From an uncultured Clostridia bacterium (GTDB lineage: Bacteria > Bacillota > Clostridia > Christensenellales > UBA1242): DNA of 64,000 nt. Shown here in pieces: positions 17,230 through 45,615 of the stretch. The notes beneath the pieces were generated by a model. The model was not told the origin of the DNA, searched no databases, and was given only the letters and a program-made list of their open reading frames with translations. The stretch lies in contig CAKVHF010000001.1 of NCBI GenBank assembly GCA_934748015.1, positions 80,918 to 144,917 on the forward strand, given 5' to 3'. A program made the position numbers and the translations under genes. Numbering within the stretch: position 1 is the first letter of the stretch; every line of letters starts with the position of its first letter.

Positions 17230-17295
17230 ATGAGAAAGAAATTAGTTGCTATTATTGTATTATTCCTAGGTGCAATTATGTCACTTGTAGGATGT
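17230..17295 (+). other. Lipoprotein signal peptide with lipobox L-V-G-C (Cys22)
   Basis: MRKKLVAIIVLFLGAIMSLVG|C: positively charged n-region, hydrophobic h-region, [LVI][ASTVI][GAS]C lipobox. Cys codon at 17293-17295. Confidence 0.8.
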
Positions 17296-26200: not shown

Positions 26201-29200
26201 CCAATTCAACTACTAGATATATCCCTATCAATGTAGGTGATACAACTGCTAGTTACTTAAATAAGTTCCAATTGTGTCGTACTGAGAAGACAATTGTAAG
26301 GAATGGCGTAACATATTATCTAGAGTATTACGCTATTAAGGCAATCAGTGTTAGTGACGATACTGTGATTATGGCACAGGTTGATTACTTCTATGATAAG
26401 GACGGTATAATCAGAGCATTTGTTGATAGACTAGGTAATTCATCAGGTGGTGATGGTATCCATGATGCTAGAGAGGGATACGAGTTAGACGCTGAGGGCA
26501 ACAAGGTTCAATACCGCAAAGAAGGTAATCTAATATACGAGTATATCTATGATGAAGCAACCAATACTTACACCAAGGCAACATATTCTGGTTGTTGTGG
26601 ATATAAGTTGTATCGTTACGATTATCAATTTAGATTGATTATCAATGTTAACTCTAGTTATGACAATCCTATCCCTATCTATGACCAAGAAGACTTCGAA
26701 GCAATGCTTAATGGTCAATCATCGGTAGATGACAATGGTCAGGTGGTTGTAGGACAACATTACATTATGATGAATAACATCAAGTTGACTAATTATTCGC
26801 TAGTAGACAACAACGCTATTGGCAATATCGGCTCTCTTGATGGTAATGGTTATACTCTAACAATCCAGAGTTTTGATACCACTGGTGTTAGAGATAGCAA
26901 GTTAACTAACTTTGGTATATTTGGTACAATTAGCGAAAATACAATTATTAAGAACTTAAATATTAACATTGCACCTTTGCTAGTTACTAGTGACAATGTT
27001 AATACATCACAAGACTTGATCAAGAACTATACAACCAAGGAAGCAATCAATGCTTACGTTGGTAGTAGTGATTATAGAGATCTTAGCAGATACTATGGTG
27101 TAGACCTAAATGCTCAGACTAGCCGTTACTTTGGTAGTGCCAGCGTAGATTTAAGCTTTATGTCAGGTATCAATTTTGGTATCCTTGCTGGTGAGAACAA
27201 AGGTAGCGTAACCAATGTTAAGATAGTTGCACTAGATGACAATATTCTTGATAACGAAAATTCTGAGTATGACAATGACACCAAGAAGGTGACTATCAGC
27301 AATACTTCTTATCAAGGTGATGCTTATACAGTGCTTAATGACGAGAGTATTAAGGCAGGTTATGTAACAACCAATGATTGTATGTATCTATATGTTGCTT
27401 CTAGCCAAGTAATAGATGGTACATACACATCTAACAATATTGCTCCATTTGTAGCAGTCAATAGTGGAATTATAACCAACAGCAGTTCCGGTATACTTGA
27501 CAAAGAAATGGACATAGTCGATGACCTTAATAACATCGTAGTTAGTGAACCTTCTAACGAAAACACATCTACCAGAATGCAGTATTATTTCAATGAAAAT
27601 AATGCAGTAGATGGCAGAGGAACAAGTGCTTATGTTAATATCAAACCATATTATGTAGCAGGTAGCGGAAATATCTCCGGATTTGTTGCTAACAATGCAA
27701 ACGATGCAGTTATCAGTTCTTCATTTGTTAAGGGCGTGGGCATATACAATACAACTCAGATATCACAGAGTTCTAGCGAAAGCAATGCTAGTATCTATAC
27801 TGCAGGTTTTGTAGTAAATAACGCTGGTGTTATCCTTAATGCACATGCCAGTGCTTATAGTTATGATAGTGCTGACAATATGGGCGAATTTATTGCTAAC
27901 AAAGACAAGTATGATGTAAGGTCTTCAGGCAATATTAGCGGATTTGTGTACAATAACGAATCTACTGGTATAATCACCAATGCATACTCTGCATTAGCAC
28001 TCGCAACTAAGGCTAACAATACTGCAGGCTTTGTATACATCAATTCTGGCGCTATCAAGCATGCATATTCTTCAACATACAGTACAGTTATAGACAGTAC
28101 AGGTGGCAGTTCTTCTAGAGCATACGGATCATTCTTCCGTAGGCAGGACTCCAATTATACTGGCACATTTGAAGATTGTTATTATCTAGTTGATACACGC
28201 AAGACACAATCTATAGTCGATGATCCAGCATCTGCTATTGAACATAGTGCAAGCAATCTGTCATTCTTGACTCCAGATTCATTTATCAATTTTGCTTTTG
28301 CTAGCAAAATCGGCATAGATGATGACAGTAGTGTATGGTACATGACTGCTAATGGTCCAAAACTATTGTCTATTATTAGTAGTACATTCTCACACAGACA
28401 ACTTGTTGGCGTAACTGGATTGGAAAATTCTAGTTCACCAGAACTAAGTTATCAAGTAGTTGAATATGTTACACTTAATGTTAATTACACAACTAAGGAT
28501 GCTGGTGGCAATGACACAATCACTAGCGGATTTAAGAGATTGTTCATCAATAGCGATTCTACTCTTAAGGTAGAGGGCGATCTAGAAGATAGACTATATA
28601 AGTTGGACGGAGACAAATATGTATACTACAATGGTGACACTAAGGTTACTGACAATGGAACAGATATTACTATTGATGTAGAAGTATTTAATAGATTGGA
28701 TAAGTTTAGTACTCTAGTTGCTACTTTGGATAAAGATGGCAACGAGGTATGGTCAACACTAGATCTACTAGATATTGCAGTAGAGGATTACAACAATTAC
28801 ATCTTCAGTTATATGTATGATGCTGATTGTGTGTATGGAACTAAGAACAATCCATTGTTGGTAGATAGTGCAGAGAGATTTGTTAACTATATTATCAACA
28901 ATTCTCACGAAGAGAATAGACTGGACGAGAATGGTAACGAGGTTAAGGATGCCAATGGCGACAATGTAATCGATCGTATATTTGGTGCTGGTTATAAGGA
29001 TGACAATAACAACAACTTAGTTGTTAATAATGTCGTAAAATACTTAAGACAAATCAACCATCTTGACTTTGGCAAGCATGGCAAAGATGATGTTAATATT
29101 TTGCAAGATAAGAACAACAACTATAATAAATATTTGAAAGAAATAATCTTCAATGGTGTATATCAAGGTAACAGCCTAGATATCAACAATCTTAACCTTA

Positions 29201-32200
29201 CAGATATGATCAATGATCAATCTAGTGTGTCTAAGAACTTCTATGGATTATTCTCTCAGATGGGTATATACACTGTATCAACAACGGATCCTAATAATGT
29301 AAATAATGTAATAGTATATAGTAATACAGCAGTATTTAAGGATGTTAATATTGAGGTTGTAGAATTCTCTTCTACCGCAATGTCGACAGGCGTAATTGCT
29401 GGTATTGTATACAATAGTGCAATTATCAATGTCAATATCGCTAGTGTTATGAGTGATTATTCTATTATCAAAGGTAGAAACTATGTAGGTGCTATCTCTG
29501 GTATAGTAATTGATAGCAAGATACTAGACACTACAGTATCAAGAATGGCAGTAGTTACAACTACAGACAGTTCAATTGTTCCTAGTATTACTAACAATAT
29601 GTATGACGACTATTTGAGTTGGCGTGCAATAGATAGTTCTAACAAGGATCAGACAATTATTACTTCGTTTAAATCATTTGATCTAGATTATACTGACAAG
29701 AGTGTCGCAGAGATCTATAGTCAATTCAATGCTAAGATCAATGTAGAGATGTCATCTAGTTTCAACTCTATGTCCTATGCAGGATTGGTTGCCGGTGTAG
29801 TTATCAACACTAAGCCACTGGATGGCTTTGAACAGACTGCTGATGCTCTTAGAAGTGCACAAGACCAGATCAATGATGTTAAGGTTATGGATAACTTTAG
29901 CGTAATATCTATCAATGCAGGTGGATTATTTGGTTATGTATCAGAGAATACACATATCAAGAATGCAAAATTGATAGTCGAGAACAATACTGAGACTGAG
30001 GCAGATCGTATCAATCAGAAGATTGTAGGAACTAACTTTGTAGGTGGTATTGTTGCGGAGAACTACGGTATCATAGAGCGTGGACAGGTTGTGTATGTAG
30101 ATGATACGCAAGCCGAAAAAGATGTCGAGGTTGCTAGCCACAACTATACAGGTGCAGATACTGAGACAAACAATATTGATACTATCTTCTCACTTGCACA
30201 AGGATCTACAGGCAGTGTAGGTACTGGCAATGTAGTAAGTGTAGGTGGTATCGCAGGATTTAACAAATATGGTTCTATCATAGATAGTTATAACAGAGTT
30301 AATGTCACTAACAAGAATGCACTTGTTGCTGGTGGTATTGTGGGTTATGCATCTGATAAGTCATATATTGGTTATACATTTACAACTGCTAATGTTATTT
30401 CTAGCAAAGTAATTGGTGGTCTTGTAGGTTTCTACAATATCGAGAATGCACTAGATGATACAAGCGTAATTGTAGTTGACAAGTGCTTTGCAATCAACCT
30501 ATGGGATAATCAGATAGATAAGATTTTGCAAGACAATAGCAATATGACCAAAGATTATGTTCTTCGTATGCCAGAACTGGGCAACCAGCCAATTGCCGAG
30601 GCAACTAAGGTTCAGGCTCTTCCTATCCAAGAGGGTGGAACAGAATATAATTATGTTGAGAAGATTGACGAGTCTAGCATTAATAATTCTAAGAATATAT
30701 ATATAGGTTCTATGATTGGTTATGCAGGTGTAAGCCGTAAGACTGCTTCTGCAACTATCATATCTGGTGGCAAAACTTATGTAACTAACTATTATGTAAA
30801 AGATGCCAATGGCAACGATGTAATTATGCTTGACAATAGCAAAAATTATCTTGCTGGTATATTTGATAAAGAAGCAAATACAGAGAAGGTAAAAGGCTTT
30901 AGCACAACTTATGCTAAACTGGTTAGAAAGAGTGGCGAATCTGTTGATCAGACTGTTATGGAGTATGATGACAGACACAATGTTGCAACTGCTCAACTAT
31001 ACAATGGTGTTGCAGACGAGAGCTTTGGACTAGATAAATTATTAATCGAAGAACAAGATACAGAGAAGGCAACATATTATTGGGATAAGACTACAGGCGA
31101 AGTTCTTCTTAAGGCAGTAGCAGAAGGTAAAGGTCTTAACTTAACTGGTAAGTTGTATGTTGTCAATACTGCTGACTATAGTGCGGGCAAAGTATATGCA
31201 GATTATTCTTATGCTAGTGCATTAGGCAAGCAGACTAGACAATTATTTTTACAGAATATTCTAGGGGTATACAACAATCTTAAGGAAGCAGATACAGACG
31301 ATTACACTCAACAAGAGATTGATACGTTTACATCTGTTAACTTATTTGAGAAAGATTATGTAGAATATAGTTACACTGCTGATGGCGAAAGAGATATGTC
31401 TGTTACACCTCTGACAATTGATGCTAAGTTTGTAGAAGCAACTGGCACACAAGAGCCAGTATGGAAGATGCAAGATAACAATGTATTGCCAGAGTATATA
31501 GTAGGCAAGTACTCTAATTATGTAACTATTCATAATACCGAAGAATTGATTCAAGCACTATCCAGCAACAATACAACCAAGATTTACTCTTTGATGTACA
31601 ACAATGCTGGGTCTAACGAGGCAATTAAATATAACATTTATATCAATCAGAAAGATGTAATATATAACTATGCAATGTTTAACACGATCTTCCGTGGAAC
31701 TTTGCAAGGTAAGTATTATGATGTAGCTAATAATAATGCTGTGTTAGATTCTGATGTTGACCATACACCAGTTATCAATATCTATACAGGCAATTCTCGT
31801 GGTGCATATGCACTAATCAATCAATTTGATTCTGCCGTTATCAAGAATGTTAACTTCAATATCATTATTGATGCAAGCGATGCAGATAATTATACTAATA
31901 TTTATGGCAACAGCAATGGATCGTTCGGATTCCTTGCAACGAGCCTAACAACAACTACTATCAACAATGTAAAAGTTACTTTTAGTAGCATGGAGAGTGG
32001 CAAAGAGATTTACTTGAAGTTGGTAGACAGAGTAGAGGAATCAGGACTAAAGGTTGTTAACAACTTTGGTATGGTATTTGGTTCTTCTATCAATACAACA
32101 ATTGATGGCTTGACTATCAATTATAACAATAATGTATATATTACTACTGGATTGACCAACAGTCTGTCATTAGGTATCGGTTATGCTAGCGGTAATATTA

Positions 32201-35200
32201 TCAATGGATTTAGTATTGAGGGTAGTGAGGGCAATAAGACATTATTTGTTAGACTTAACAATAACCGAATCAACAACGGCAACTCGCTTAACATAGGTGG
32301 CGTTATTGCCAAGAACAATTACAATGTTAATAATAATGTAATAAGCAATGTTAATATAGACTTAAGTTATAACGAAGTAGAGAGAGAAGCTCTTAAGACA
32401 TTTGGCTTCAACTTCAATATCTACTTGGGTGGACTATACGGCTATTCTATGGCTGGTTCTACTAATGACGCTAAGTATATTGCTAATAATGTTAATATTT
32501 CGTTAACAAGATCTAGCTTTACACTAGATGGTGGTTATCAGGCAATCTACGTTGGTGGTATCGCTGGTTACGCAATCAACAATAGCATAACTAATGCTCT
32601 TGCTAGTGCTAGTGAGGTAAGTGAAGGTGTTGCTACTTACACTAAGTTGATTGCAGAAATTGATTATGTTAATACATATATCGGTGGACTTGTAGGTTAC
32701 AATGGAAGAAACAGTTCTGTTTCTGGCAATGATAACCAGACATGGGTAGACATGTATTTGACACTTACAGGCTCTAATAGTGCATTTGTAGGTGGAATAG
32801 TAGGTTATAACGCAACAGGTGCTAGCAAAACTAACACTAATTGCGTAAGTTATGGCACAATACTTATCAATGATGGCATAGATCTTAAGACGTTGTCTAT
32901 CTATGTGGGTGGTATCGCAGGATATTCTGCTTCTGGCGAGTATCAATTAGTAACCAATTATGGCGATATTATGACTTGGAACTATGGAAGATTTGTTAAT
33001 AATAATAAGCCTGATGTAGATCCAAGAATGAATAATGATAAATTGACTGCTAAGTTATTAAAGGATGATATAACCAAAAACACTAAGAATGCAAAGTACT
33101 TTGTAGGTGGATTGATTGGTTATGCAAGCAATGCAACAATCAAGCAATTTGCCAACATGGGTGATATCTATTATGTACTAGGCTCCAACAACTTCTATGG
33201 CGGAATAATTGGTTATAGTAGACTTACTCCTATTGCATTAAATAGTGGTATATCTTATGCTAGATTCTATACTTATGATAATGCTCAGAATAGCAGATAT
33301 AATGCTAATCTATATACAATAGCAGAGGGTTGCAACAGCAACGGAACCAAAGATGTATATTACATCCAAGAGTTCTATGCTAAATATTCTGATCTATATC
33401 AGAGTTACAAGAATGAAGTGAAAGTAGTAGATCCTACTACTGGAAATAACGAAATCAAGATCCAAAACACCGAGTACAACGGCACTCAGGTATATGGATA
33501 CAATACAATTGCATATTTCAATGCATTGAGAGACGGAATTGGTTCAAACAACTTGCAATTGAAATACAACACTGCAGTCGAGAAAGAATCTTATTATCCA
33601 GAACTATATGCTAAGATGAATGCACAGACAGGTGTTACAGATAGCATTACAGATTATTATGTAGTTGGAACTACTACTACTGATACTCTAGGAGGAAAAC
33701 CAGTTGTATTTGTAGGTGCAAATGATAATACTACCGATATTACATTTGATGCTCCTATAGATATTGATTCAAATAGTATTTATTCTTCTCTTCGTGTAAT
33801 AGTTAATAGCACAGAGCCTGCAGAAAATATTTATTCACCATTTGTAAATACAAATAATGGTAGAATAATTAACTGTATTACTTACGGTGAAGTTACTAGA
33901 GATTTTGATGAAAATGACCAAATTAGCTCATTTGCTATAGTAAATAAGGGTGATATTGTAAGATCTGGCGCAGTTGTAACTTATACTGGTAAGTTCACAA
34001 TTGCTGGCACATATACCGAAGATAAGGGTGCAATAACAAGCATTGATAGTGATTTTGTATTCTCTGGATTTGTAGGTGATAACAATGGTCGTATATCTGA
34101 TTGTTATTCAACTGCAAATATTGATCATATCAATAAGGTAGAACAAAAACGTGACGACCAAATCAACTTAACTGGAGATAGCAAAACGTCAGATCATCTT
34201 AACATTGCAGGTCTTGTTTACAAACAAAGTACTAAGACTGACAATGTATATGTAAGCAATTCTTTCCATTCTGGCAAAGTAATTGATTATACAACACCAG
34301 CAATTAGATATGGTGTAGATCAAGATGGAAATATAGGTATATTAACCAAAGATTATAGTGGTCAAGGTAATAATATCTATGACAATAGCAATGTAGAAGA
34401 TCTAGAAGATGGCGTTGTAAAATATTTCAACGACACAGACGATGCGGGTTATAATATTTGGAAAAAGGCTGATAGCCAAAATATCAACTATAACCAATAC
34501 TATATCAACAACATTTGTGTAGAAGGCAAAGATAAATATGCTATGACTGGTATTCAGGCAATATTTACATACTCTGGCAAAACTCAGAATAATGCAGAAT
34601 ATAATAGTTTGTCTGTAGCAGAAAGTGGTGCAGTTGACAAAACTGGAGTATTTAGTAGCGGAAAATATTATCAAATAGATGCTTTGGAGACTATTCAAAA
34701 AACTGGTGACAAAACACGTTCTTATAAATTATTCCAAAACGACTCCAATGCAATTATTATTGAGACTCCTAGAGACTTTGCAAGATTGATTAAGAAATAT
34801 AACAATTCTACACTTACGGCTAATGTTTACCTTTTGGCAGATGAGTTGGATATGTCAGGATTGCTAGGTGTTAATTATTCTGGTATTGAGAAATTAAAAG
34901 GCAATATATATGGTTTTGGTTCAACCAATACATTGCCTAACATGGGTGTGGTTATTAAGAATTTGACATTGTCTACACCTTTGGTAGTTAAAAACAATGG
35001 TGAGATCAAAGGTCTAGTTATAGATAATGCTAATATAATAGGCGGACATTCTGTACTTACCGATGAAAATAATGGAACAATACAATATGTTTCTATTATC
35101 AACACAACACTTACTGTAGATGCCAACAACATTGGTTTGTTTGCAACTGAGAACGAAGGCACAATTGACAGTGTTTACTTGTTAAATGATACAATCAGTG

Positions 35201-38200
35201 TTCAACTATATAATTTGGGCACAAAGAAGACAGATGTGTATTATGGCATAGGTGGTGTTGCAGGTATTAATAATGGCACAATACAGCATGCGAGAGTAGG
35301 TTACGATAGTGCAACAATTAATGGTGTCGGAATTAATTATGTTGCATCCTCTTCCAACAATATTTCGGTCGGTGGAATTGTAGGTATTAATAACAAAACA
35401 GGCGAATTAAATGCAGTTAGCTTAATGAGATCTACTATTGATGCACGTATTGTTAGCAATGTAGGCGGAATAGTTGGTGACAACAAAGGTGAAATCGGTA
35501 TCCAAAAAGGAACCGCTGGCAATTATAGCAAGGATAGAGCAGCTGCTGTGCTGGATAGTTCTATCAATGCTGGTCAGAATACGGGTGCTATTGTTGGCCA
35601 TACTAACAAGTCACTTATCTCTGGTGTTAAAGACAATAAGCATTATGTCTTTGTATATAATACTACTATTGAGTGCGAAGATATAGCAGGCAACTCTAAG
35701 GCCGGTATTGCAATCGGAGCCGTTGATGTAACGAGCGAATCGGTTAAAGTTGATCAAATATTTGTGGTTAATAGTTCGGTTAAAGCATCTGGCACAAATG
35801 TAGGTGGTTTAATCGGTTATGTCAATGCTGACAAAATCAGCCAGGGTAAAAATGTTTTAATAACCAATATTACTTTAAGATCTATTAAGATTAGTGCTAC
35901 AACTAACAATGTTGGTGGCGTAGTTGGTAGTATATTTGCAGGTCAAGATCCTATCAATAATAGCACAACAGCAGTTGTTCAACTATCCAATATCAATATT
36001 AACGAAATTAATATTGAGAACACTAATGGACAGAATATTGGTGGAATTGTTGGTTATGCTAATGGCGTATTGGTTCAAGATGTTGAAATCAAAAATGATA
36101 TAACATCAGCAAGAGGTAACTCTATCGTATCCAATTACAAGTCGGACAATGCTGATAGCGGATCAAACATTGGTGGCGTTATTGGTCTTGCGGTTAATAG
36201 CTCGATCAATGGTGCAATTATATCCAATCTTACTATCAATGCATTTACAGGTAATGTAGGTGGCTTGGTTGGTTATTATGGTCACAATACAGCAACTAAG
36301 GGATTTTTCTCTACAAGTACATTGTTTGTAACAGGTGAGACCAATCAAATAAGTTTGAATGATATTACTATATCTATTACATCTTCTTCAGTTGATGATA
36401 ATAAGAAGTATTCGGACAATGGCAGAGTCGGTGGATTGCTTGGTGCAGAGGCATCTCAATATAGCAACAAAGACGCTATTAAATTATTTAGTGGTGACAC
36501 CCAAGTTACTTTAAATAATATCAAATTAAGCGGTGGTTCATTTGTAGGCGGAATCGCAGGTGTTACATATCACGAGATTGCAAGGGGACAGGTTAAAACC
36601 ACAAAGCCAGGTACTGGCTCAACTCCAGCAACTGGCTCAACTACTGAGACCCAAGCTGCTCTTGCAGTTGTAATAACTAATATTTCAATTAGTTCTTCAG
36701 GCTCTTATGTAGGTGGTGCAGTTGGTTATACCAATAGATCTATCTATGGAGTTAGAATTATTGCTGATCCTACTGGTAGCAATACAATTGTTGCTGCTGG
36801 ACACTATGTAGGAGGTATAGCAGGCTTAGTTGCTGAGAGCAGAGTTCTTAATGATAATGACCCTGCGTCAACAAAACAAGATGCATTATATAGCAAAACT
36901 GGTGTAGAAATTAAAGCAGTTGAGGTATCCAAAATCAGCGTTTCTAGCACATCATTTGCAGCTCAAGCTTATGTGGGCGGTATCGTTGGATGGACTAGTG
37001 CCTATGTAGGTAGTGGATATATCAATGGTGCTAAAAAGGGAAATGTTACATCTCTAGGGGATGTTAAAGTAACAGAAACCCTACTTAATACAGTAGTGGT
37101 ATCCAATGCAACAGTCAGAGCTAATGGTGCGTATGTCGGCGGTGTAGTTGGTAGCACAATTGCCCCAATTAACCGAGTAATAGTTACATCTGAGGCTTCT
37201 GGCGAGTACAATAACATTACTAGTACTAACGGCAACCACGTAGGTGGTGTTGTTGGTAAAACAACTAACAATATATTTAATTCAGTTGTTCAAAATGTTC
37301 AAATTTCTGCTAAGTCAGTAGGTGAGGCAGGTGTTAATTTTGATAAATTCAATCCAGATACTTACCCAGAAGCTAACGTAGGTGGTGTTGCTGGATCGAC
37401 TACTGCAAAACTATATAATGTAATGTTAACAACAGTAGCGGGTGCAGCTGTTCAGAGTAATAACATAATTACAGCATCAGACAATTTCAATAAGAATATT
37501 GGTGGAATTGTAGGTAAGTTATACAATGGTGATGAAGGCAATAAAACAAATCTGGGCAGTAATTATGACAACTATCTTAACAACTGCTCAGTATCCAATA
37601 CAGAGATCAAAGCCAATAATAGCCAAACATCATATATTGGTGGTATCGTTGGTGGTTATGTAGTTAAGACACTGGAAAGTGTTCGATACAATCTGGAAGC
37701 TAAGCAAGTTGCAAGAAGAGAAAGCGCTATTAATTACTTTAGTGGAGAAAAAGATGGCGATATAGTTTACAAATTGCTTGATTCATCTACTAAAAAGTAT
37801 AATAGTATTAATAGTCAATCGATATACAATGTTGAAGTAGAGGGTTATGACTATGTCGGTGGTATTATAGGTGCAGTTACAGGCAGTAACAACAGACAAT
37901 ATGTTTATGATACACAAACTTATGAAATTATCAACCCTGTTAACTTGTCTAATATTAATATAACCAATATTAATGTTAAAGGTGCCAACGAATTTGTAGG
38001 TGGTGTTATTGGTAAGTTATCTGTCAAAAAGCAAGTTGGCAGGGTAGACAATGATTATGTAGATCTTAGTGTTCAAGAAGAACATTTCATCATGACTTGT
38101 ACCAAACAAAATCTACAAGTACTATTCAATAGTAATGCCCAAAATGAACTGATTTCGAGTGATATAAATAGTTTATATGACGGTATTGGTTCCAGCATTA

Positions 38201-41200
38201 GTAAAATTGAAGTTAAAAGCACTAGCCTGCAGAGGTCAACAATTAATGCAAGCGGTTGTATAGCTTATGTAGGAGGTATAGCAGGTTATGTTGATACGAT
38301 TATCGAGACTGCTAATAAGCAATATGTTAATAATACTATCATCGAAGTAGCAATGAAAGATGATCACCAGATAATTATCGAAAATATGGATATTACATCA
38401 TCAGCACAATGTACAGGTGGCGTTGCAGGATATGCTGTTAATGTAGCTGCTAATTGGATAGCACCAATAGAAAACAAATATACTACAAGTGGCAATGAAC
38501 ATAGAACTGGTTTGATTGGTATTAACTCTATCAATATCACCTCATCTCAACAAAGAGTAGGTGGTGTTGTTGGTGATGCAAAGTTTGTAAATGGTAACTA
38601 TGTACTGGTTGGCTCAGATATAACTTCTACTTCAACCAAAGAAGTTACATACATAGGTGGACTATTTGGTAAAATAAATGGAACATTTATGAAAGATTTC
38701 AGTGGCAATGAGCATCAAGGTGATGGGAATAAATATGTTTATGTTAAGCGTTTAAAATTTAATATTTCAAATGGTTCTAATTATATCATAGGCACAACAT
38801 ATGGTGTAGGTGGAGCAATTGGTGCATTGCGTATTAACAATAACATTATTATGTCCGAGCAAGCAGTCAAGGTTGAACAATTGACCATGAATGTGTCTGC
38901 TTGTCATGTAGGTGGCGTAATAGGACATTTGCGAGGATATGGCGAAAATGACGTGGTAGTAAGCGGTGCGGCATACTTGTATAATAGCGAAATTACTGCA
39001 ACAGGTCTATCGCAATACATAGGTGGATTGATTGGTTTAGTCGATCATGATAACCCTAATCACAAAACACATCTAGTTAATCTTCTTATCAATATTATAA
39101 CTATTGAAGTCACTGGTTCTAATGGTCACTATGTAGGTGGATGTATCGGTATGACGACGGGTGATATTGAGACAGCAGCCTTGTCTGATTATGGTTATGG
39201 CTTAAAGCTGTCCTCCAATGGTAGATTTATAGGCGGTATAGTTGGTAGATGTGATGGCACAATTACTGATACAAAATTGAATTCAGCAGTAACAATCGAT
39301 TCAACATTTGCAGGTAGATACACTGTAGTTGATGGCGGTAGTGATGCTGTAGGCAATATCTTTGTATATGATGCATATGTAGGCGGTATAGCAGGATATG
39401 CTAACAAGTTTGGTTCAGCTCCAGCAACCACAGATTTAGTAAATTTTAGTGCTGCTGCTCAGCCAATAAGAAAAGATAATTTAACTTTCAGTTATCAATC
39501 TAGCAACCCATTAGAAACAACTTGGCGAGCCGATGTGGTCGTAAATAACAATTTAACAATAACGGCACTACAAGGTGTTGTTGGAGGAATTGTTGGTTAT
39601 GTTAAAGAATTTTACTCTACTGTGTTTATGGAGTCAGTAATCAATATTGAGACATCTGGACAATCCGTCGGTGGCGTAGTTGGTTATCTAGAAGACAAGA
39701 TGGAGAATATTTATGCTAACAAATTCTTTGAAGAAGAAGGTAAGGATTACAAAAAAGAATATGAACCAGCTATTTCTATCAAAGGAAATAACCAAGAGAA
39801 CACTCATATCTATGGAGACCAATATGTAGGTGGTGTCGTAGGTGGTGGTACAGCTCTTAAATACTATGACGGAACTGCTGCTAGATATCTTAGAGAGCCT
39901 GCAGTCTATATTGAAGATGATTATACAGAATATAAGTTGGCTCCTTATGACAATAATTCATTCAATGCAAGTTTAACTGCAATGAACATGGAAGCGGTTG
40001 CTGAATTGTTCTATCCGGAAAGAATAAAGATAGGCGGTGTTGATTATCATGATTACACTAAGATAAACACGGATTTGTTTAAAAAACCAGATGGTGGGAA
40101 CTATTTGGAAAAAATGCTAAAGGATGATAATCTAAATTCTTATAATGGAATTATTATTAACTTTTCAGCTTATGATAAATACGATAATATTATTAAAAAT
40201 TGTACTTATGGAATGAACTTATACATTCCAAGCGATAATGATAGAGAAAAAGATAGTAGTAAAATTGAATTCATAAGAACAAAGAATACCGAACAAATGA
40301 TGGGATATAATAAGTGCCTAACAGGAGGAACTCAAGGTCAAGAACCTTGGTTATCATTAGGAGCAAAGTATATTATAGCAAAGATAGAATTTGTTACAAA
40401 TGACGTTATACCTATGACTACAGCAACTTTACAGTTTAGTTTTGGTGATACATATAAGTATGACTACAACCACTTGTCCAATATGTTCCTTAGTCTTTCG
40501 GAAAGAATGCAGGACAAAATTAAGGCAAAAGTGACATTCCTAAACAAAGATAAAGATGCAACTAAAACATCAAAAATATATAGCGGATCTCAATATATCG
40601 AATTAATGAAGTTGATCAAAGAAATCAGAAATAAAGGTAACAATTTATATTCAGATATAAGATTTGATTCGGTAATTGTGTATAATGTCAAAGTTGGCAA
40701 AATCAATTTCCAACCTAGAACTGGGCCAGAACCAGATCAACAACAACATGCAAAAAATGACAAATATTTTATTGCAGTTGATAACCTTACTATATCTGCA
40801 ACGCAATATGCAGGTGGCGTAACAGGTTATAGTGTTAACGATTATATTTTTGTCAATGATCCAGGGCATGTTTCCAACATAGACATAACTGTTAACAACA
40901 ACTATGCTGGTGGTATAGCAGGTTATTATCAAAGTAGCGGTAACATAACAGGTATTGCAAAATACATCAATATTACAGGTAGAGATTATCTTGGAGGATA
41001 TGTTGGTGCCAATCAAGGTAGTGCTGAGGTTGCATTTACTGCAGATAATTTGAAATATATTAACATCAACGGAAATAACTTCTTAGGTGGTGCGATAGGT
41101 CGAAATACTGGTGAAGTCCATGGATCGACTATGCAAGTCACAATAGTTGGTAACAATTATGTGGGAGGTATTGCAGGTTTCAGTATTGAAGATATTACAG

Positions 41201-44200
41201 CAGATGTCTCGGACTCTAAAATCTCTGGTAATACATTTGTAGGAGGCATTGTAGGTCAAACTTATGCTGATTTCATGCTCGGTAGATATGCTTCTGCTGA
41301 TGGATATCTGGCTCATATAGGCCATGTTGAAGTATCTGGTTATAGCTATGTAGGCGGAATTGCCGGTAGTGTTAACAAAAGATACGATCATAGACCAAAT
41401 CCTACAGGTGAAATAGGCAAAAACTTAAAACTGGGTTGGGCGTATGTTTCCAATTCTAGTTCTGTTACAGGTGGCTACAATGTAGGTGGCTTATTTGGAG
41501 AAGTAATTGCTGATAATATAGTGGGTAGAGATGGCAATTATGGCGAAGCAGTAGATAACAACACCTGTTTTGCTGGGGTATATGACAGTATTGTTAGAGC
41601 AGATAATGCATCCAATACTTATAACTTTGGTGTATATGCAATGTCATACTATGAGGAAGGTGAGTATGCTAACAATGGACCTCAGAACAATGATAACTAT
41701 TCTTGTGTTGGTGGAATCTTTGGATATGTATGTACAACATTAGGTGATCAAATATTAAAAAATTCTAATGTGGCTAAGGCAAGAGGTTGTGGAGGTATAT
41801 TGCTTAACCGTATTGAAGTTATTAACGTTATGGTTGAAGGCTTGTCCGGTGTCGGTGGTGTAGCCGGTGTGCTAGAAGGTGTCTATCAACCTGGTATTAC
41901 CTATGTTATGGGTGATAGAACAGGCACATACTTGATCAATGGTAATTCATGCGTCGGTGGTGTTATTGGTGCACAACTAGATGCGGTGAGGATTAAAGAA
42001 GATGAAGCACAAATAATTAAGGCAGTATTTAGTGGCAATTCTAATGTAATTGATTATAAGATAGGTAATATGGGAGCAACTAACGTAGGCGGTGCAATCG
42101 GATTATTTGGCAGTATGAAAACTGCAATTGCTAAAAACATACAAAGTGCTTTTATTGGCAAAGACGGTTATGTTAGGGGTGAAGCACAAATAAATTCAGC
42201 CATAATCTATAATGTATACAAGAATAGTAAAGATCCTAATGTAGGAGCAGACTCTGCGGCTAGTTATTCGTATATTGGTAGTCCAGAAGGAAATAATACT
42301 ATTATTAATATATCCAATGGCGTACACAAAAGCCAACTTCCTTTGATTGCTGGAGATAAAGGATATGGATATGGTGCTAAAGCTGTTAATGATACTTATT
42401 ATTATTTTGATTCACATACTCTTACTGATAAGATATTCTTCGTTCAAGGTAACTCTGAAGCAGGTGGCTTAGTAGGCAGAATCAGTGGCCTAATAGAAGG
42501 CACAAACGCGGAAGGAGACAATGCGGTAAGTATTTCCGATGCTAGAACAAAGAGTGCTGTTAAGATGGCTAACTGTAAGATTGGAACAATTAATGTCAAT
42601 GTAATTGCCAATGGCAATGCAGGTGGTTGGTTTGGTTCAGTTAGCTATGCTCAGATTAGTCTTGCTTCCAAAGAAAGCGGAGCTAAGTCGGATGGCAAAT
42701 TAACTATAAGTGAAGGATTCTATAACACAGTTGTACAATCTACTGGTGACAATATTGGTGGTCTGGTTGGATATTTAGAAGGATCTCTATTGAGCAATGC
42801 CGAGAATGGCGATCCATTAATTATTTTCCCTAAGATAAATGCTAACTCCGGCGACAATATCGGTGGTGCTGTCGGCATGGCTCACAATGCATCTATTATG
42901 GGTATCCAGATTGGATTGACTAAATCTGATGAATCGGGCCGTGTATTTATACATGGAGGTAAGAACAACATCGGTGGTATTGTTGGTCGTGTTGATATAA
43001 CAGATAGTAGCTATAAGAAAATAGGCAACAAAAATGAAGAACGAACATTTGTTGTTGGATGTAGCGTTGTATCAACTAAGGTTGTCGGTGAAGAATGTGT
43101 CGGCGGAATAGTTGGATACGGTGTTGGAGTTGTTATTAGTGGTTGTGTTTCTGGTGGAGGTGTTAATACAACTGGGCCAGTAAGTGTAAGTGATACAACT
43201 ATCGAAGGTATTACCTATGTTGGTGGTATTATCGGTTATCACAAATTTACTAATAATACAAACGATAAATATGATGTCAATGATTATAACCCAGATTCAA
43301 CCATTGGTAGCGGAAATCGTATAATGATCTTTGGTGTTACAAACAATGCTGATGTATCTGGCGAGAAATATATCGGTGGTGTCGCTGGATATATTGACCG
43401 TGCAGGTGTTATATTTAAGAATGAAGACCTTGGCGAGAGTGATGTCGGTGGTGTTAAGTATATCAACACATCATATGATAGTAATAATATTGATGAAAGT
43501 GAGACAATAAGTCTTGGTTCTGGTTCGTCTGCAAAATGCAACCCAGATGCAACTATCAGATGGAAAAAACCATTTACCGCTAAGTCAATTAAGGATATTA
43601 ACAATAGTTACAATAGAGAGGATGATGCTAGTACATCAGGCGCTGTGCAATATTCTAGCTTTGATGAGGCTAAGTTACATTTTGTCCAAGAACAGAATGT
43701 AGAACAGACATGGGATGAATTGGCAGGTAGCAATGGTGCTTTCCAATCTGACATTAGTGATATGTTGTTTACACATAGACCGGATTCATCTTCTGGTAGT
43801 ACAAGTAAGTCGGTTGGTCAGACAATAACCGTTAACTATAAGGTTTCTGCAGGAAGTACTACCAAGAAGTATCCTCCTAGCGAAGCGATATTTATAGGCG
43901 ACATAGTAGGCAATAGATATCTAGACAATATGAACCCTAAGGGTACAAGCATTACTATAGGGGATAAGAGATATTTTAACTACAACAATAATCATGCAGA
44001 TAATGTTGTGGATGATAATGATCTTACCTGGAACGATGTTTTGATTGGTGATCAGATAGAATTAACAACCAATAAGTACAAAGAGGGTACGGTCGATATT
44101 GATGTAAGCATGTCAATGCAATGGGTCAGAACGGATTGTTATATTGATATAGACACCGAACTCAATAGGAAAAATACTCTTTCAGGATATACACATACAC

Positions 44201-45615
44201 AATCTCTTAGAGACTGGACTGTAGAGAATGTGGAAGACTGGGGAACAGATAACTGGAAGGATGTTAACGAAATTGCATATGTGTTTAAAGATAATAAATA
44301 TTATATATGTGAACAAAGTAAAGATACTACAATTAACATTTATGCGTTAGAAATAAAATTTGAAATGATGTGTGATTCTGGTGTTAGTGGTATGGATGGA
44401 GAGTATAGCAGGACATTGAGATTATATAATATGTTAACGTATAAACTTATACACGACCCTGGTGGTTTGTCCAAAATGGAGCGTATAGAGATAGATAGTT
44501 TTGGGGCATTTCCACCTAAGACTGTTGGTTTATCATATATTAACAACACTCAGAAAATACAATCATTTAAATATAACATTCCACATACGGTGTTGGATGT
44601 TGATGGTAAAGGAAACTTACCAGTAAAAGTTGTAGATCAAACAGCATTTACTGAGAAAAATATTTTAGGTAAATTTAAACCTATACTTGGGGGGGTTCTT
44701 GGAGGAACGATAGATCAATCGCAATTCCCAATAGATGAAACAAGTGATATTACAAACTCAACAACAGGATCATTGTTTACATCAGGTTTTACTTATAATT
44801 ACAGTGTATGGTGGGAAGATACTGATAGTTCCAATATCAACTTAGCTACTTATCTAGGTTCACACACAGCCCAAGATCAAGAGAAAGCCCCTTCTACAGC
44901 AGGTGGTTCTACAAGTGGAGAAACTGAGTTAGGAAGCGGTAGTAATTTAAATAAAAATTCAATGACTTACACCAAAGTGTGTAATATAATCAATAACTCA
45001 GGCGGAAATTATCTAATGTGTCTTGGTGCATTGCAAATGTGTGAAATTGAAGTAAGTCCTGGGAATCAACTATCGTCTATGGATGTTGGATCTTATGATG
45101 GTAAAAATTTCCCAAGGAAAAGCGGTGGGGCACATTATACACCTCCGGGAGAATTTAAAAAAGTGATAGCATACAATTGGGCTTGTAATTATTACAATGG
45201 TAGTGTGTCTCCTAGATATCCTGTACCAAATCGAAAATCTGGAAATGACTATTGTGTTGATTATAGTTGGAGTGAAACTCTAAACTGTTTGAAAGGAGCT
45301 AAACAAATATATAGTGACTGTTTTGGTTTTGTAAGAATAGTGCAAATGTTGGCGTATAATAAGGTAACAATAACAAGTTATGGAGATATTACAGAACTGG
45401 GGAACAGAAATAAAATACTGCCAGGTGCAGTTGTTCGTTGGCGTGCAGGCGGCGAAGATAAACATGTTGCAATATACCTATATACTGATGGAGATTATGC
45501 ATACTTTATAGATCAACAATGTATTGTAAGAAATGGGAAATGGGAACAAAACGGAAACATTGATTATATAACAGAAGGTTCTGGTAGAGATGTAATGTAC
45601 TTTAAAAACATGTAA
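17230..45615 (+). CDS. Giant (9,461 aa) predicted surface lipoprotein: multiple GLUG-motif beta-solenoid cassettes, Ig-like/unknown spacers and a C-terminal NlpC/P60-like domain
   Basis: Single uninterrupted 28,386-nt ORF in AT-rich DNA. All competing-frame ORFs in the track across this interval are 165 aa or shorter. Preceded by an AAGGGTGA RBS and a consensus promoter. Lipobox at the N-terminus. Many dozens of x-[VI]-G-G-[ILV]-[VIA]-G repeats. Bidirectional terminator 20 nt downstream. Confidence 0.9.
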   Translation: MRKKLVAIIVLFLGAIMSLVGCDCSNNQDNMKIRSSAVGNYETVAGKDDQYLLYCNTDAELEYILQSNAGKTKMYNKLVLDVEVEGVSNNDNKDIVYKTSSNCVSLSSVVDGGVTRLTISAVDSGYAKITMSSKVYGLVEKSVEVYVEKATAIMNAKDDMAVADGGVLNLNDLATQDKFIEYTANTTKTDVEVAIAYNALASDAAKQALREVVEQYITIANGKITVADGTANALRNTVLANTKLPITVRNITSNIYMKDADENTVHWVEIVELTKVANVYMNKLDGNSKIKLESFVNDGSVGADYYEVRLVNTSDLTGTSSYNTYLTSRNLYFAGLDSGNTVWFNSDTYSFDVVGSSSPISNSLYISPNIDDTKKLSMSVTASKLQNINTIKFAIDYKEYPGLFTQYIYIKFIRMQVPTENDIYLNSELDLNRFVVYNKDTYNTGRVTGSVLEVSTTSQFIGMSYRYSLSMDNNGGLYNNVDYENNPDYIQTGSNALINVRRLTGVDYTSDEDISQKNKLYVSHNFDNLASFGGKITLTIQLTYDLSGNSSNGAEYDKFYVTKSIDLSLVQGLTKENIEGSFLRDEFVLDVTDYQDKQVYKLWTPGADLKVSDYINWTTSTGAVYNRRYFTLDVITEQVNGVDQQYLILVPNQEYLTTSGKERLTLNFINGTSVNKFVECVIPFMFGDSDGGVAIAYNEQDSAFMYKGSLLSEAVFKGNSAYWQLFDMQDADTAWTRYQEYIQHDQDGDTISGYTYTTLHNLVIAKGSSLALSVQNYMYKMTGQSLGIEFYNIPVDNNLRINIRKKYSLQGYSGGKLNASNTISNRNNPDVVEITYSGYAYVTDNGVKSLKPITFTQNILVWVYDSIQSIELNRDNTTLYDYRTVGAFRQSNSMYELSYSVNPAITNLGGVATDSDKGDGVSIRWGFFKKNIENLTKDEKDELGKLNGLDSQKFKALMDKYIIADTQYTVDTGNSKAQFSLNEVLYLQQVNGELRLIFNMSNVIDRLNKSNISDQDIYDAIFGKDNTSKKLDLAIVAEQFSSRRALDYVTLTLTAANMVDKVVLSNIVNDGVSSAVEDDGLYAEQRNITNSNNIYDINYVITGKDANRAIYNTNVRLQYGNSTAVNGRNVFEIVDENGNVLVDANGVATNYFKNNSYHAYIRLTGVPGTQILYISSEDSFTIVNENIVRDNSKTISYTISVSDGSAEYPYRIYNVNDYARMLQDIRNDNYYHYTIVRDINLSNDTRFSPSALSDINVVNGSGKTFAINGKYSYTSMSGEVINNARHKIMLDWSNATISTSDTVNSFGLFASISGVKITNVTLSINANILAKIDNDAYIGGFAGKISGSSELINCQVEGTILYTELTTSINGKTVYLGSMAGEVVDSKVYVDEVKQFGQNFDVYTNIKLYRQKSDTTGVSNTIVNKMMIGGAFGAITNSDQTKGKYSGLSVFAQIIEATYLDGILSTDNGSYIGGVVGSAGNAKLTNIESYPYIRATRNVGGMVGTMSGSNISLSKVYFISNYSNEKSVTAIDASDMVGGMVANADGNNNTIEYSYVRGFNRNNPDGKNYLGDMHIPSNTVSFGGLVANIGSGKLIIDRVYFDATIGFNGLTTKSSKNDAKNVLIGNANENNCNFASNVTGAYAIVRTNFPDQMTYKETGSTTFISNYLTSFGKNGYLYINGQEITYSLNSTITDGLGINANNNNNTYAWFYNKNYADVNNRHPMLLYRNTVLYDIIPSGIDIKIQTDTVRNNNLGWLIVNNDTDNPNRNSQVIIFHSSNSEGKTNRYVNKYVIGVTKEGNTNFNTADGYTYNNFIALELLGSVIKTDYIKLMAKDGFTLSVKGNDTGIISIDGNIITTNGYGRVTLVVSYLLDSSIYAEIELIVYSNIYKMNMTYTTDSLSRATDLKDTTNKVFVNEEMYLTANVVNMYDGGFIAQNIYFDVETDMGARLEILKDSGKFTYAGTTYSYDENDKDNNYIYIDSILTNRIFTITPVENKNIIFNITPYYTVDTTKVMVDSRSADYTIKVSARATSIVINGNKTSAELSAIGTQNLELAITTANVVEENGKYRLKNHSFNMSVYSKVSNELIGTVNNVCELVDEVKNATFTLDEITEFDNIVFSNNYFKDTLMNVKLTGIKISATGNNDYVVTYYLSLVFNKTEYQRNYSTINMINADYHIVFTPSSNSTIDTVFDCKIKLNNPVDIDFNFYTNAETKDGEFNPQEVESKYIAPGRNGLIKLQIFEDFNSADRIDMYFDTNYLQYISYNQMTALTSVIATNNMAYITGYKDIEPYLIYENGRAIGIRLDNITSTYGNTEFFNNIFYIKLKMQNETPASLIASDKYLDITIKAYDYNGQQVMTDRSERLIIETLPVADISIDGTDLTVLEVGDYKEIVWDAYNYNTLPEDEVDGKYGVKVNVKYAYDELKDYMFVVDEAGLEAYINLKRDDISDTDRAKYQDILTKYISAEEYTFYISNTNVKDKYYLVSRADIMDSDIDDPYRYMYDRMDANGNSMTIEKYCYASIIITLSVEKTINNTIEVATDEVGVQLVPVELKDLSLTGHTEVGNEHTFQVLNGTYTGLGFDINKESIRSIEGEYSYEAYNNKNAGNGAELKNYDYFYYNGKYYNIADYADKVYSIYKVNSDDLIWTRESADGKTIPDNYYYLYSSVDKGEIYQAVYVKINFADDATTNRYDRIDSGYYGINGMTINNSQARFSYIDDNQNAVIAGYGEDNVYVYYFVYNDAKRGQSIALVKRLEGNQGFSYYNEQDVPVTTGNTPEVITAGWYNVGSSEFLKLFPTITQSSVRSSTLNRFVDVLTEYGYNYELSTDNSKIEYVDRTDLNNVIYHTIIDVSDPTAVTSYLYGYTNVKFIKNQFGKYINYNSRYINVDESRGKIYCKDEVQGDINTPATYGTIANYYADMGNNNYALIASTYTTTSVATTTDYYRYRIADFTTLEKERFTLSGISVFTVDKDGNKDYVVDSRANFYYLDSANSTTRYIPINVGDTTASYLNKFQLCRTEKTIVRNGVTYYLEYYAIKAISVSDDTVIMAQVDYFYDKDGIIRAFVDRLGNSSGGDGIHDAREGYELDAEGNKVQYRKEGNLIYEYIYDEATNTYTKATYSGCCGYKLYRYDYQFRLIINVNSSYDNPIPIYDQEDFEAMLNGQSSVDDNGQVVVGQHYIMMNNIKLTNYSLVDNNAIGNIGSLDGNGYTLTIQSFDTTGVRDSKLTNFGIFGTISENTIIKNLNINIAPLLVTSDNVNTSQDLIKNYTTKEAINAYVGSSDYRDLSRYYGVDLNAQTSRYFGSASVDLSFMSGINFGILAGENKGSVTNVKIVALDDNILDNENSEYDNDTKKVTISNTSYQGDAYTVLNDESIKAGYVTTNDCMYLYVASSQVIDGTYTSNNIAPFVAVNSGIITNSSSGILDKEMDIVDDLNNIVVSEPSNENTSTRMQYYFNENNAVDGRGTSAYVNIKPYYVAGSGNISGFVANNANDAVISSSFVKGVGIYNTTQISQSSSESNASIYTAGFVVNNAGVILNAHASAYSYDSADNMGEFIANKDKYDVRSSGNISGFVYNNESTGIITNAYSALALATKANNTAGFVYINSGAIKHAYSSTYSTVIDSTGGSSSRAYGSFFRRQDSNYTGTFEDCYYLVDTRKTQSIVDDPASAIEHSASNLSFLTPDSFINFAFASKIGIDDDSSVWYMTANGPKLLSIISSTFSHRQLVGVTGLENSSSPELSYQVVEYVTLNVNYTTKDAGGNDTITSGFKRLFINSDSTLKVEGDLEDRLYKLDGDKYVYYNGDTKVTDNGTDITIDVEVFNRLDKFSTLVATLDKDGNEVWSTLDLLDIAVEDYNNYIFSYMYDADCVYGTKNNPLLVDSAERFVNYIINNSHEENRLDENGNEVKDANGDNVIDRIFGAGYKDDNNNNLVVNNVVKYLRQINHLDFGKHGKDDVNILQDKNNNYNKYLKEIIFNGVYQGNSLDINNLNLTDMINDQSSVSKNFYGLFSQMGIYTVSTTDPNNVNNVIVYSNTAVFKDVNIEVVEFSSTAMSTGVIAGIVYNSAIINVNIASVMSDYSIIKGRNYVGAISGIVIDSKILDTTVSRMAVVTTTDSSIVPSITNNMYDDYLSWRAIDSSNKDQTIITSFKSFDLDYTDKSVAEIYSQFNAKINVEMSSSFNSMSYAGLVAGVVINTKPLDGFEQTADALRSAQDQINDVKVMDNFSVISINAGGLFGYVSENTHIKNAKLIVENNTETEADRINQKIVGTNFVGGIVAENYGIIERGQVVYVDDTQAEKDVEVASHNYTGADTETNNIDTIFSLAQGSTGSVGTGNVVSVGGIAGFNKYGSIIDSYNRVNVTNKNALVAGGIVGYASDKSYIGYTFTTANVISSKVIGGLVGFYNIENALDDTSVIVVDKCFAINLWDNQIDKILQDNSNMTKDYVLRMPELGNQPIAEATKVQALPIQEGGTEYNYVEKIDESSINNSKNIYIGSMIGYAGVSRKTASATIISGGKTYVTNYYVKDANGNDVIMLDNSKNYLAGIFDKEANTEKVKGFSTTYAKLVRKSGESVDQTVMEYDDRHNVATAQLYNGVADESFGLDKLLIEEQDTEKATYYWDKTTGEVLLKAVAEGKGLNLTGKLYVVNTADYSAGKVYADYSYASALGKQTRQLFLQNILGVYNNLKEADTDDYTQQEIDTFTSVNLFEKDYVEYSYTADGERDMSVTPLTIDAKFVEATGTQEPVWKMQDNNVLPEYIVGKYSNYVTIHNTEELIQALSSNNTTKIYSLMYNNAGSNEAIKYNIYINQKDVIYNYAMFNTIFRGTLQGKYYDVANNNAVLDSDVDHTPVINIYTGNSRGAYALINQFDSAVIKNVNFNIIIDASDADNYTNIYGNSNGSFGFLATSLTTTTINNVKVTFSSMESGKEIYLKLVDRVEESGLKVVNNFGMVFGSSINTTIDGLTINYNNNVYITTGLTNSLSLGIGYASGNIINGFSIEGSEGNKTLFVRLNNNRINNGNSLNIGGVIAKNNYNVNNNVISNVNIDLSYNEVEREALKTFGFNFNIYLGGLYGYSMAGSTNDAKYIANNVNISLTRSSFTLDGGYQAIYVGGIAGYAINNSITNALASASEVSEGVATYTKLIAEIDYVNTYIGGLVGYNGRNSSVSGNDNQTWVDMYLTLTGSNSAFVGGIVGYNATGASKTNTNCVSYGTILINDGIDLKTLSIYVGGIAGYSASGEYQLVTNYGDIMTWNYGRFVNNNKPDVDPRMNNDKLTAKLLKDDITKNTKNAKYFVGGLIGYASNATIKQFANMGDIYYVLGSNNFYGGIIGYSRLTPIALNSGISYARFYTYDNAQNSRYNANLYTIAEGCNSNGTKDVYYIQEFYAKYSDLYQSYKNEVKVVDPTTGNNEIKIQNTEYNGTQVYGYNTIAYFNALRDGIGSNNLQLKYNTAVEKESYYPELYAKMNAQTGVTDSITDYYVVGTTTTDTLGGKPVVFVGANDNTTDITFDAPIDIDSNSIYSSLRVIVNSTEPAENIYSPFVNTNNGRIINCITYGEVTRDFDENDQISSFAIVNKGDIVRSGAVVTYTGKFTIAGTYTEDKGAITSIDSDFVFSGFVGDNNGRISDCYSTANIDHINKVEQKRDDQINLTGDSKTSDHLNIAGLVYKQSTKTDNVYVSNSFHSGKVIDYTTPAIRYGVDQDGNIGILTKDYSGQGNNIYDNSNVEDLEDGVVKYFNDTDDAGYNIWKKADSQNINYNQYYINNICVEGKDKYAMTGIQAIFTYSGKTQNNAEYNSLSVAESGAVDKTGVFSSGKYYQIDALETIQKTGDKTRSYKLFQNDSNAIIIETPRDFARLIKKYNNSTLTANVYLLADELDMSGLLGVNYSGIEKLKGNIYGFGSTNTLPNMGVVIKNLTLSTPLVVKNNGEIKGLVIDNANIIGGHSVLTDENNGTIQYVSIINTTLTVDANNIGLFATENEGTIDSVYLLNDTISVQLYNLGTKKTDVYYGIGGVAGINNGTIQHARVGYDSATINGVGINYVASSSNNISVGGIVGINNKTGELNAVSLMRSTIDARIVSNVGGIVGDNKGEIGIQKGTAGNYSKDRAAAVLDSSINAGQNTGAIVGHTNKSLISGVKDNKHYVFVYNTTIECEDIAGNSKAGIAIGAVDVTSESVKVDQIFVVNSSVKASGTNVGGLIGYVNADKISQGKNVLITNITLRSIKISATTNNVGGVVGSIFAGQDPINNSTTAVVQLSNININEINIENTNGQNIGGIVGYANGVLVQDVEIKNDITSARGNSIVSNYKSDNADSGSNIGGVIGLAVNSSINGAIISNLTINAFTGNVGGLVGYYGHNTATKGFFSTSTLFVTGETNQISLNDITISITSSSVDDNKKYSDNGRVGGLLGAEASQYSNKDAIKLFSGDTQVTLNNIKLSGGSFVGGIAGVTYHEIARGQVKTTKPGTGSTPATGSTTETQAALAVVITNISISSSGSYVGGAVGYTNRSIYGVRIIADPTGSNTIVAAGHYVGGIAGLVAESRVLNDNDPASTKQDALYSKTGVEIKAVEVSKISVSSTSFAAQAYVGGIVGWTSAYVGSGYINGAKKGNVTSLGDVKVTETLLNTVVVSNATVRANGAYVGGVVGSTIAPINRVIVTSEASGEYNNITSTNGNHVGGVVGKTTNNIFNSVVQNVQISAKSVGEAGVNFDKFNPDTYPEANVGGVAGSTTAKLYNVMLTTVAGAAVQSNNIITASDNFNKNIGGIVGKLYNGDEGNKTNLGSNYDNYLNNCSVSNTEIKANNSQTSYIGGIVGGYVVKTLESVRYNLEAKQVARRESAINYFSGEKDGDIVYKLLDSSTKKYNSINSQSIYNVEVEGYDYVGGIIGAVTGSNNRQYVYDTQTYEIINPVNLSNINITNINVKGANEFVGGVIGKLSVKKQVGRVDNDYVDLSVQEEHFIMTCTKQNLQVLFNSNAQNELISSDINSLYDGIGSSISKIEVKSTSLQRSTINASGCIAYVGGIAGYVDTIIETANKQYVNNTIIEVAMKDDHQIIIENMDITSSAQCTGGVAGYAVNVAANWIAPIENKYTTSGNEHRTGLIGINSINITSSQQRVGGVVGDAKFVNGNYVLVGSDITSTSTKEVTYIGGLFGKINGTFMKDFSGNEHQGDGNKYVYVKRLKFNISNGSNYIIGTTYGVGGAIGALRINNNIIMSEQAVKVEQLTMNVSACHVGGVIGHLRGYGENDVVVSGAAYLYNSEITATGLSQYIGGLIGLVDHDNPNHKTHLVNLLINIITIEVTGSNGHYVGGCIGMTTGDIETAALSDYGYGLKLSSNGRFIGGIVGRCDGTITDTKLNSAVTIDSTFAGRYTVVDGGSDAVGNIFVYDAYVGGIAGYANKFGSAPATTDLVNFSAAAQPIRKDNLTFSYQSSNPLETTWRADVVVNNNLTITALQGVVGGIVGYVKEFYSTVFMESVINIETSGQSVGGVVGYLEDKMENIYANKFFEEEGKDYKKEYEPAISIKGNNQENTHIYGDQYVGGVVGGGTALKYYDGTAARYLREPAVYIEDDYTEYKLAPYDNNSFNASLTAMNMEAVAELFYPERIKIGGVDYHDYTKINTDLFKKPDGGNYLEKMLKDDNLNSYNGIIINFSAYDKYDNIIKNCTYGMNLYIPSDNDREKDSSKIEFIRTKNTEQMMGYNKCLTGGTQGQEPWLSLGAKYIIAKIEFVTNDVIPMTTATLQFSFGDTYKYDYNHLSNMFLSLSERMQDKIKAKVTFLNKDKDATKTSKIYSGSQYIELMKLIKEIRNKGNNLYSDIRFDSVIVYNVKVGKINFQPRTGPEPDQQQHAKNDKYFIAVDNLTISATQYAGGVTGYSVNDYIFVNDPGHVSNIDITVNNNYAGGIAGYYQSSGNITGIAKYINITGRDYLGGYVGANQGSAEVAFTADNLKYININGNNFLGGAIGRNTGEVHGSTMQVTIVGNNYVGGIAGFSIEDITADVSDSKISGNTFVGGIVGQTYADFMLGRYASADGYLAHIGHVEVSGYSYVGGIAGSVNKRYDHRPNPTGEIGKNLKLGWAYVSNSSSVTGGYNVGGLFGEVIADNIVGRDGNYGEAVDNNTCFAGVYDSIVRADNASNTYNFGVYAMSYYEEGEYANNGPQNNDNYSCVGGIFGYVCTTLGDQILKNSNVAKARGCGGILLNRIEVINVMVEGLSGVGGVAGVLEGVYQPGITYVMGDRTGTYLINGNSCVGGVIGAQLDAVRIKEDEAQIIKAVFSGNSNVIDYKIGNMGATNVGGAIGLFGSMKTAIAKNIQSAFIGKDGYVRGEAQINSAIIYNVYKNSKDPNVGADSAASYSYIGSPEGNNTIINISNGVHKSQLPLIAGDKGYGYGAKAVNDTYYYFDSHTLTDKIFFVQGNSEAGGLVGRISGLIEGTNAEGDNAVSISDARTKSAVKMANCKIGTINVNVIANGNAGGWFGSVSYAQISLASKESGAKSDGKLTISEGFYNTVVQSTGDNIGGLVGYLEGSLLSNAENGDPLIIFPKINANSGDNIGGAVGMAHNASIMGIQIGLTKSDESGRVFIHGGKNNIGGIVGRVDITDSSYKKIGNKNEERTFVVGCSVVSTKVVGEECVGGIVGYGVGVVISGCVSGGGVNTTGPVSVSDTTIEGITYVGGIIGYHKFTNNTNDKYDVNDYNPDSTIGSGNRIMIFGVTNNADVSGEKYIGGVAGYIDRAGVIFKNEDLGESDVGGVKYINTSYDSNNIDESETISLGSGSSAKCNPDATIRWKKPFTAKSIKDINNSYNREDDASTSGAVQYSSFDEAKLHFVQEQNVEQTWDELAGSNGAFQSDISDMLFTHRPDSSSGSTSKSVGQTITVNYKVSAGSTTKKYPPSEAIFIGDIVGNRYLDNMNPKGTSITIGDKRYFNYNNNHADNVVDDNDLTWNDVLIGDQIELTTNKYKEGTVDIDVSMSMQWVRTDCYIDIDTELNRKNTLSGYTHTQSLRDWTVENVEDWGTDNWKDVNEIAYVFKDNKYYICEQSKDTTINIYALEIKFEMMCDSGVSGMDGEYSRTLRLYNMLTYKLIHDPGGLSKMERIEIDSFGAFPPKTVGLSYINNTQKIQSFKYNIPHTVLDVDGKGNLPVKVVDQTAFTEKNILGKFKPILGGVLGGTIDQSQFPIDETSDITNSTTGSLFTSGFTYNYSVWWEDTDSSNINLATYLGSHTAQDQEKAPSTAGGSTSGETELGSGSNLNKNSMTYTKVCNIINNSGGNYLMCLGALQMCEIEVSPGNQLSSMDVGSYDGKNFPRKSGGAHYTPPGEFKKVIAYNWACNYYNGSVSPRYPVPNRKSGNDYCVDYSWSETLNCLKGAKQIYSDCFGFVRIVQMLAYNKVTITSYGDITELGNRNKILPGAVVRWRAGGEDKHVAIYLYTDGDYAYFIDQQCIVRNGKWEQNGNIDYITEGSGRDVMYFKNM
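17296..20850 (+). other. N-terminal non-GLUG region of the giant protein (about 1,185 aa), beta-rich, probably Ig-like domains
   Basis: No GGxxG periodicity. Asn/Tyr/Thr/Val-rich. Segments such as GVTRLTISAVDSGYAKITMSS resemble Big_2-type strands. Confidence 0.35.
20851..22410 (+). repeat. GLUG-type beta-solenoid cassette 1 (aa 1208-1727)
   Basis: Head: YPYRIYNVNDYARMLQDIRNDNYYHYTIVRDINLSN. Body repeats: IGGFAGKISG, IGGAFGAITN, IGGVVGSAGN, VGGMVGTMSG, VGGMVANADG. Tail: YAWFYNKNYADVNNRHPMLLY. Confidence 0.7.
22411..26664 (+). other. Long non-GLUG spacer (about 1,418 aa), Tyr/Asn/Asp-rich, Ig-like or unknown folds
   Basis: Lacks the GGxxG repeat. Contains strands such as GYGRVTLVVSYLLDSSIYAEIELIVY. 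No catalytic motif recognised. Confidence 0.35.
26665..28368 (+). repeat. GLUG-type beta-solenoid cassette 2 (aa 3146-3713)
   Basis: Head: NPIPIYDQEDFEAML...HYIMMNNIKLTN...LDGNGYTLTI. Body: ISGFVANNAN, TAGFVVNNAG, ISGFVYNNES, TAGFVYINSG. Tail: SSVWYMTANGPKLL. Confidence 0.7.
28849..31500 (+). repeat. GLUG-type beta-solenoid cassette 3
   Basis: Head: NPLLVDSAERFVNYIINN. Body: VGAISGIVID, AGGLFGYVSE, VGGIVAENYG, VGGIAGFNKY, AGGIVGYASD, IGGLVGFYN. Tail: EPVWKMQDNNVLPEYI. Confidence 0.65.
31519..33609 (+). repeat. GLUG-type beta-solenoid cassette 4
   Basis: Head: YVTIHNTEELIQALSSNNTTKIYSLMYNN. Body: IGGVIAKNNY, LGGLYGYSMA, VGGIAGYAIN, IGGLVGYNGR, VGGIVGYNAT, VGGIAGYSAS, VGGLIGYASN. Tail: KESYYPELY. 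Confidence 0.65.
33610..34752 (+). repeat. Degenerate/short GLUG-like cassette
   Basis: FSGFVGDNNGRISDCYS and IAGLVYKQS. Ends in GYNIWKKADSQNINYNQYY. Weaker periodicity than its neighbours. Confidence 0.4.
34753..39849 (+). repeat. GLUG-type beta-solenoid cassette 5, about 1,700 aa of nearly continuous repeats
   Basis: Head: IIIETPRDFARLIKKYNNSTLTANVYLLADELDMSG. It is followed by a long run of VGGIVG / VGGLIGY / IGGIVGY / VGGVVGS / VGGIAGL units. There is one short Pro/Thr/Gly hinge near 36600-36660. Confidence 0.7.
39850..40810 (+). other. About 320-aa non-repeat globular insert interrupting the solenoid
   Basis: Periodicity is lost between ...YVGGVVGGGTAL and ...YAGGVTGYSVN. The sequence in between (FYPERIKIGGVDYHDY...KCLTGGTQGQEPWLSLGAKYIIAKIEFV...INFQPRTGPEPDQQQH) matches nothing I recognise. 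Confidence 0.5.
40811..43460 (+). repeat. GLUG-type beta-solenoid cassette 6
   Basis: AGGVTGY, AGGIAGYYQ, LGGYVGANQ, LGGAIGRNT, VGGIAGFSI, VGGIVGQTY, VGGIAGSVN, VGGLFGEVI ... VGGIIGYHK, IGGVAGYID. Confidence 0.7.
43461..44868 (+). other. About 470-aa non-repeat region of unknown function preceding the C-terminal domain
   Basis: No GLUG periodicity. Trp/Asp-rich segments (LRDWTVENVEDWGTDNWKD). No motif recognised. Followed by a Gly/Ser/Thr linker (44869-44961). Confidence 0.4.
44962..45612 (+). other. C-terminal NlpC/P60-like (papain-fold) cysteine peptidase/amidase domain (aa 9245-9461)
   Basis: YSDCFGFVRIVQ (Cys9364, codon 45319-45321) resembles the DCSGxV catalytic-Cys motif. ILPGAVVRWRAGGEDKHVAIYLYTDGDYAYFIDQ (His9412, codon 45463-45465) resembles the pGDlvff...HVgiYlg.g..ihA block. 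The Cys-His spacing of 48 aa is typical for the family. Confidence 0.65.

Follow-up and report, generated by a model that had tools for sequence, protein, structure and literature searches.

A giant bacterial lipoprotein ends in a predicted, highly divergent papain-fold cysteine hydrolase that strains exchange as a discrete cassette

The 64,000-nucleotide stretch of DNA analyzed here (the window) contains an uninterrupted reading frame on the forward strand (17230..45615, +), which encodes a 9,461-aa protein of an uncultured low-GC bacterium. The gene is real: it is called intact in independent assemblies, with products of 9,461, 9,480, 9,443 and 9,453 aa. The C-terminal module (44962-45612) comprises exactly the final 217 codons of the frame and is preceded by a Gly/Ser/Thr linker (...KAPSTAGGSTSGETELGSGSNLNKNS). 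Within the module, Cys9364 is located in the motif IYSDCFGFVRIVQ and His9412 lies 48 residues beyond it, in DKHVAIYLY, while the segment FIDQQ supplies Asp9428 and Gln9429. The reading frame, module position, linker and Cys/His spacing described in the original prediction were all reproduced when the frame and its coordinates were rechecked.

At the opposite end of the protein, the N-terminal sequence MRKKLVAIIVLFLGAIMSLVGC constitutes a lipoprotein signal (LVGC, with the lipobox cysteine at Cys22) that satisfies the PROSITE-type lipobox rule, including a Lys or Arg within the first 7 residues, and this match bears out the proposal that the module terminates a protein carrying such a signal. 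The signal is also the sole strongly hydrophobic segment of the 9,461-aa protein, in which no LPXTG motif is found. The body of the protein (9,244 aa, all but the terminal module) has no match to Pfam GLUG, nor to any other Pfam or NCBIfam family. The previously suggested label of a 'GLUG' fibre is therefore unsupported by the Pfam model, and the body shows only a GG[LIV][VIA]G motif, repeated approximately 50 times and mostly between residues 4339 and 8716.

The assignment of the terminal module rests on several independent lines of analysis, all of which converge on the NlpC/P60-CHAP clan. The top PDB sequence matches of the module are MepS/Spr and CwlO, hhalign aligns it to MepS, and a Foldseek search with its AlphaFold core ranks Gsp amidase (CHAP) and NlpC/P60 enzymes highest, at E-values that are marginal (1.6e-3 at best). 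The Pfam score against NLPC_P60 (PF00877) is 18 bits, below the cut-off of 23. As a consequence of this sub-threshold score and the marginal Foldseek E-values, the module is a clan-level member that represents a new family, and not a bona fide member of PF00877. The NlpC/P60 identity originally proposed thus holds at the level of the papain-fold superfamily, by both profile and structure, but not at that of the Pfam family itself.

Five residues (D9363, C9364, G9366, H9412 and D9428) are invariant across 19 copies of the domain that share just 18-39% identity with the copy in the window, which argues that the catalytic motif is more than a chance resemblance. On this pattern of conservation, Cys9364, His9412 and Asp9428 are supported as candidates for a catalytic triad, with Asp9428 as the candidate for the third position, for which Gln9429 had also been considered. 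The original prediction was to be abandoned if the module lacked any profile or structural match to papain-fold hydrolases, or if Cys9364 and His9412 varied among homologues; each of these observations, which can be sought in silico, was looked for and none was made. It is therefore a well-supported prediction that the terminal 217 residues form a real, very divergent cysteine hydrolase of the NlpC/P60/CHAP type.

The module family is rare, with 4 matches among 1.84 billion representatives, and has no Pfam family of its own. It occurs in two contexts, as stand-alone secreted proteins of approximately 290 aa and at the end of giant proteins with GGxxG repeats. Clostridia MAGs are the source of two of the relatives. 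NlpC/P60 toxin domains borne on long stalks have already been described (Tox-NlpC/P60; PMC3482391), and the novelty of the arrangement is accordingly narrower than the earlier claim of 'no described system'.

Newly found here is a cassette polymorphism of three deep alleles. Among syntenic orthologues of the giant protein (9,443-9,480 aa), the terminal module occurs as three discrete alleles. Copies of one allele are 100% identical and different alleles share 39-51% identity, whereas the flanking proteins are 95-99% identical. The alleles are bounded by sharp recombination boundaries; strains of the same species exchange the terminal module as a discrete gene cassette. A co-varying immunity gene linked to the module alleles was sought and none was found. 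Further blocks of the stalk are also mosaic, and antigenic or receptor variation therefore accounts for the polymorphism equally well. The exchange of three deep alleles as a cassette fits an enzyme that is exposed and encounters a varying external partner. The predicted hydrolase may lie at the distal tip of the protein, remote from the wall of its producer, and may act on foreign cell walls.

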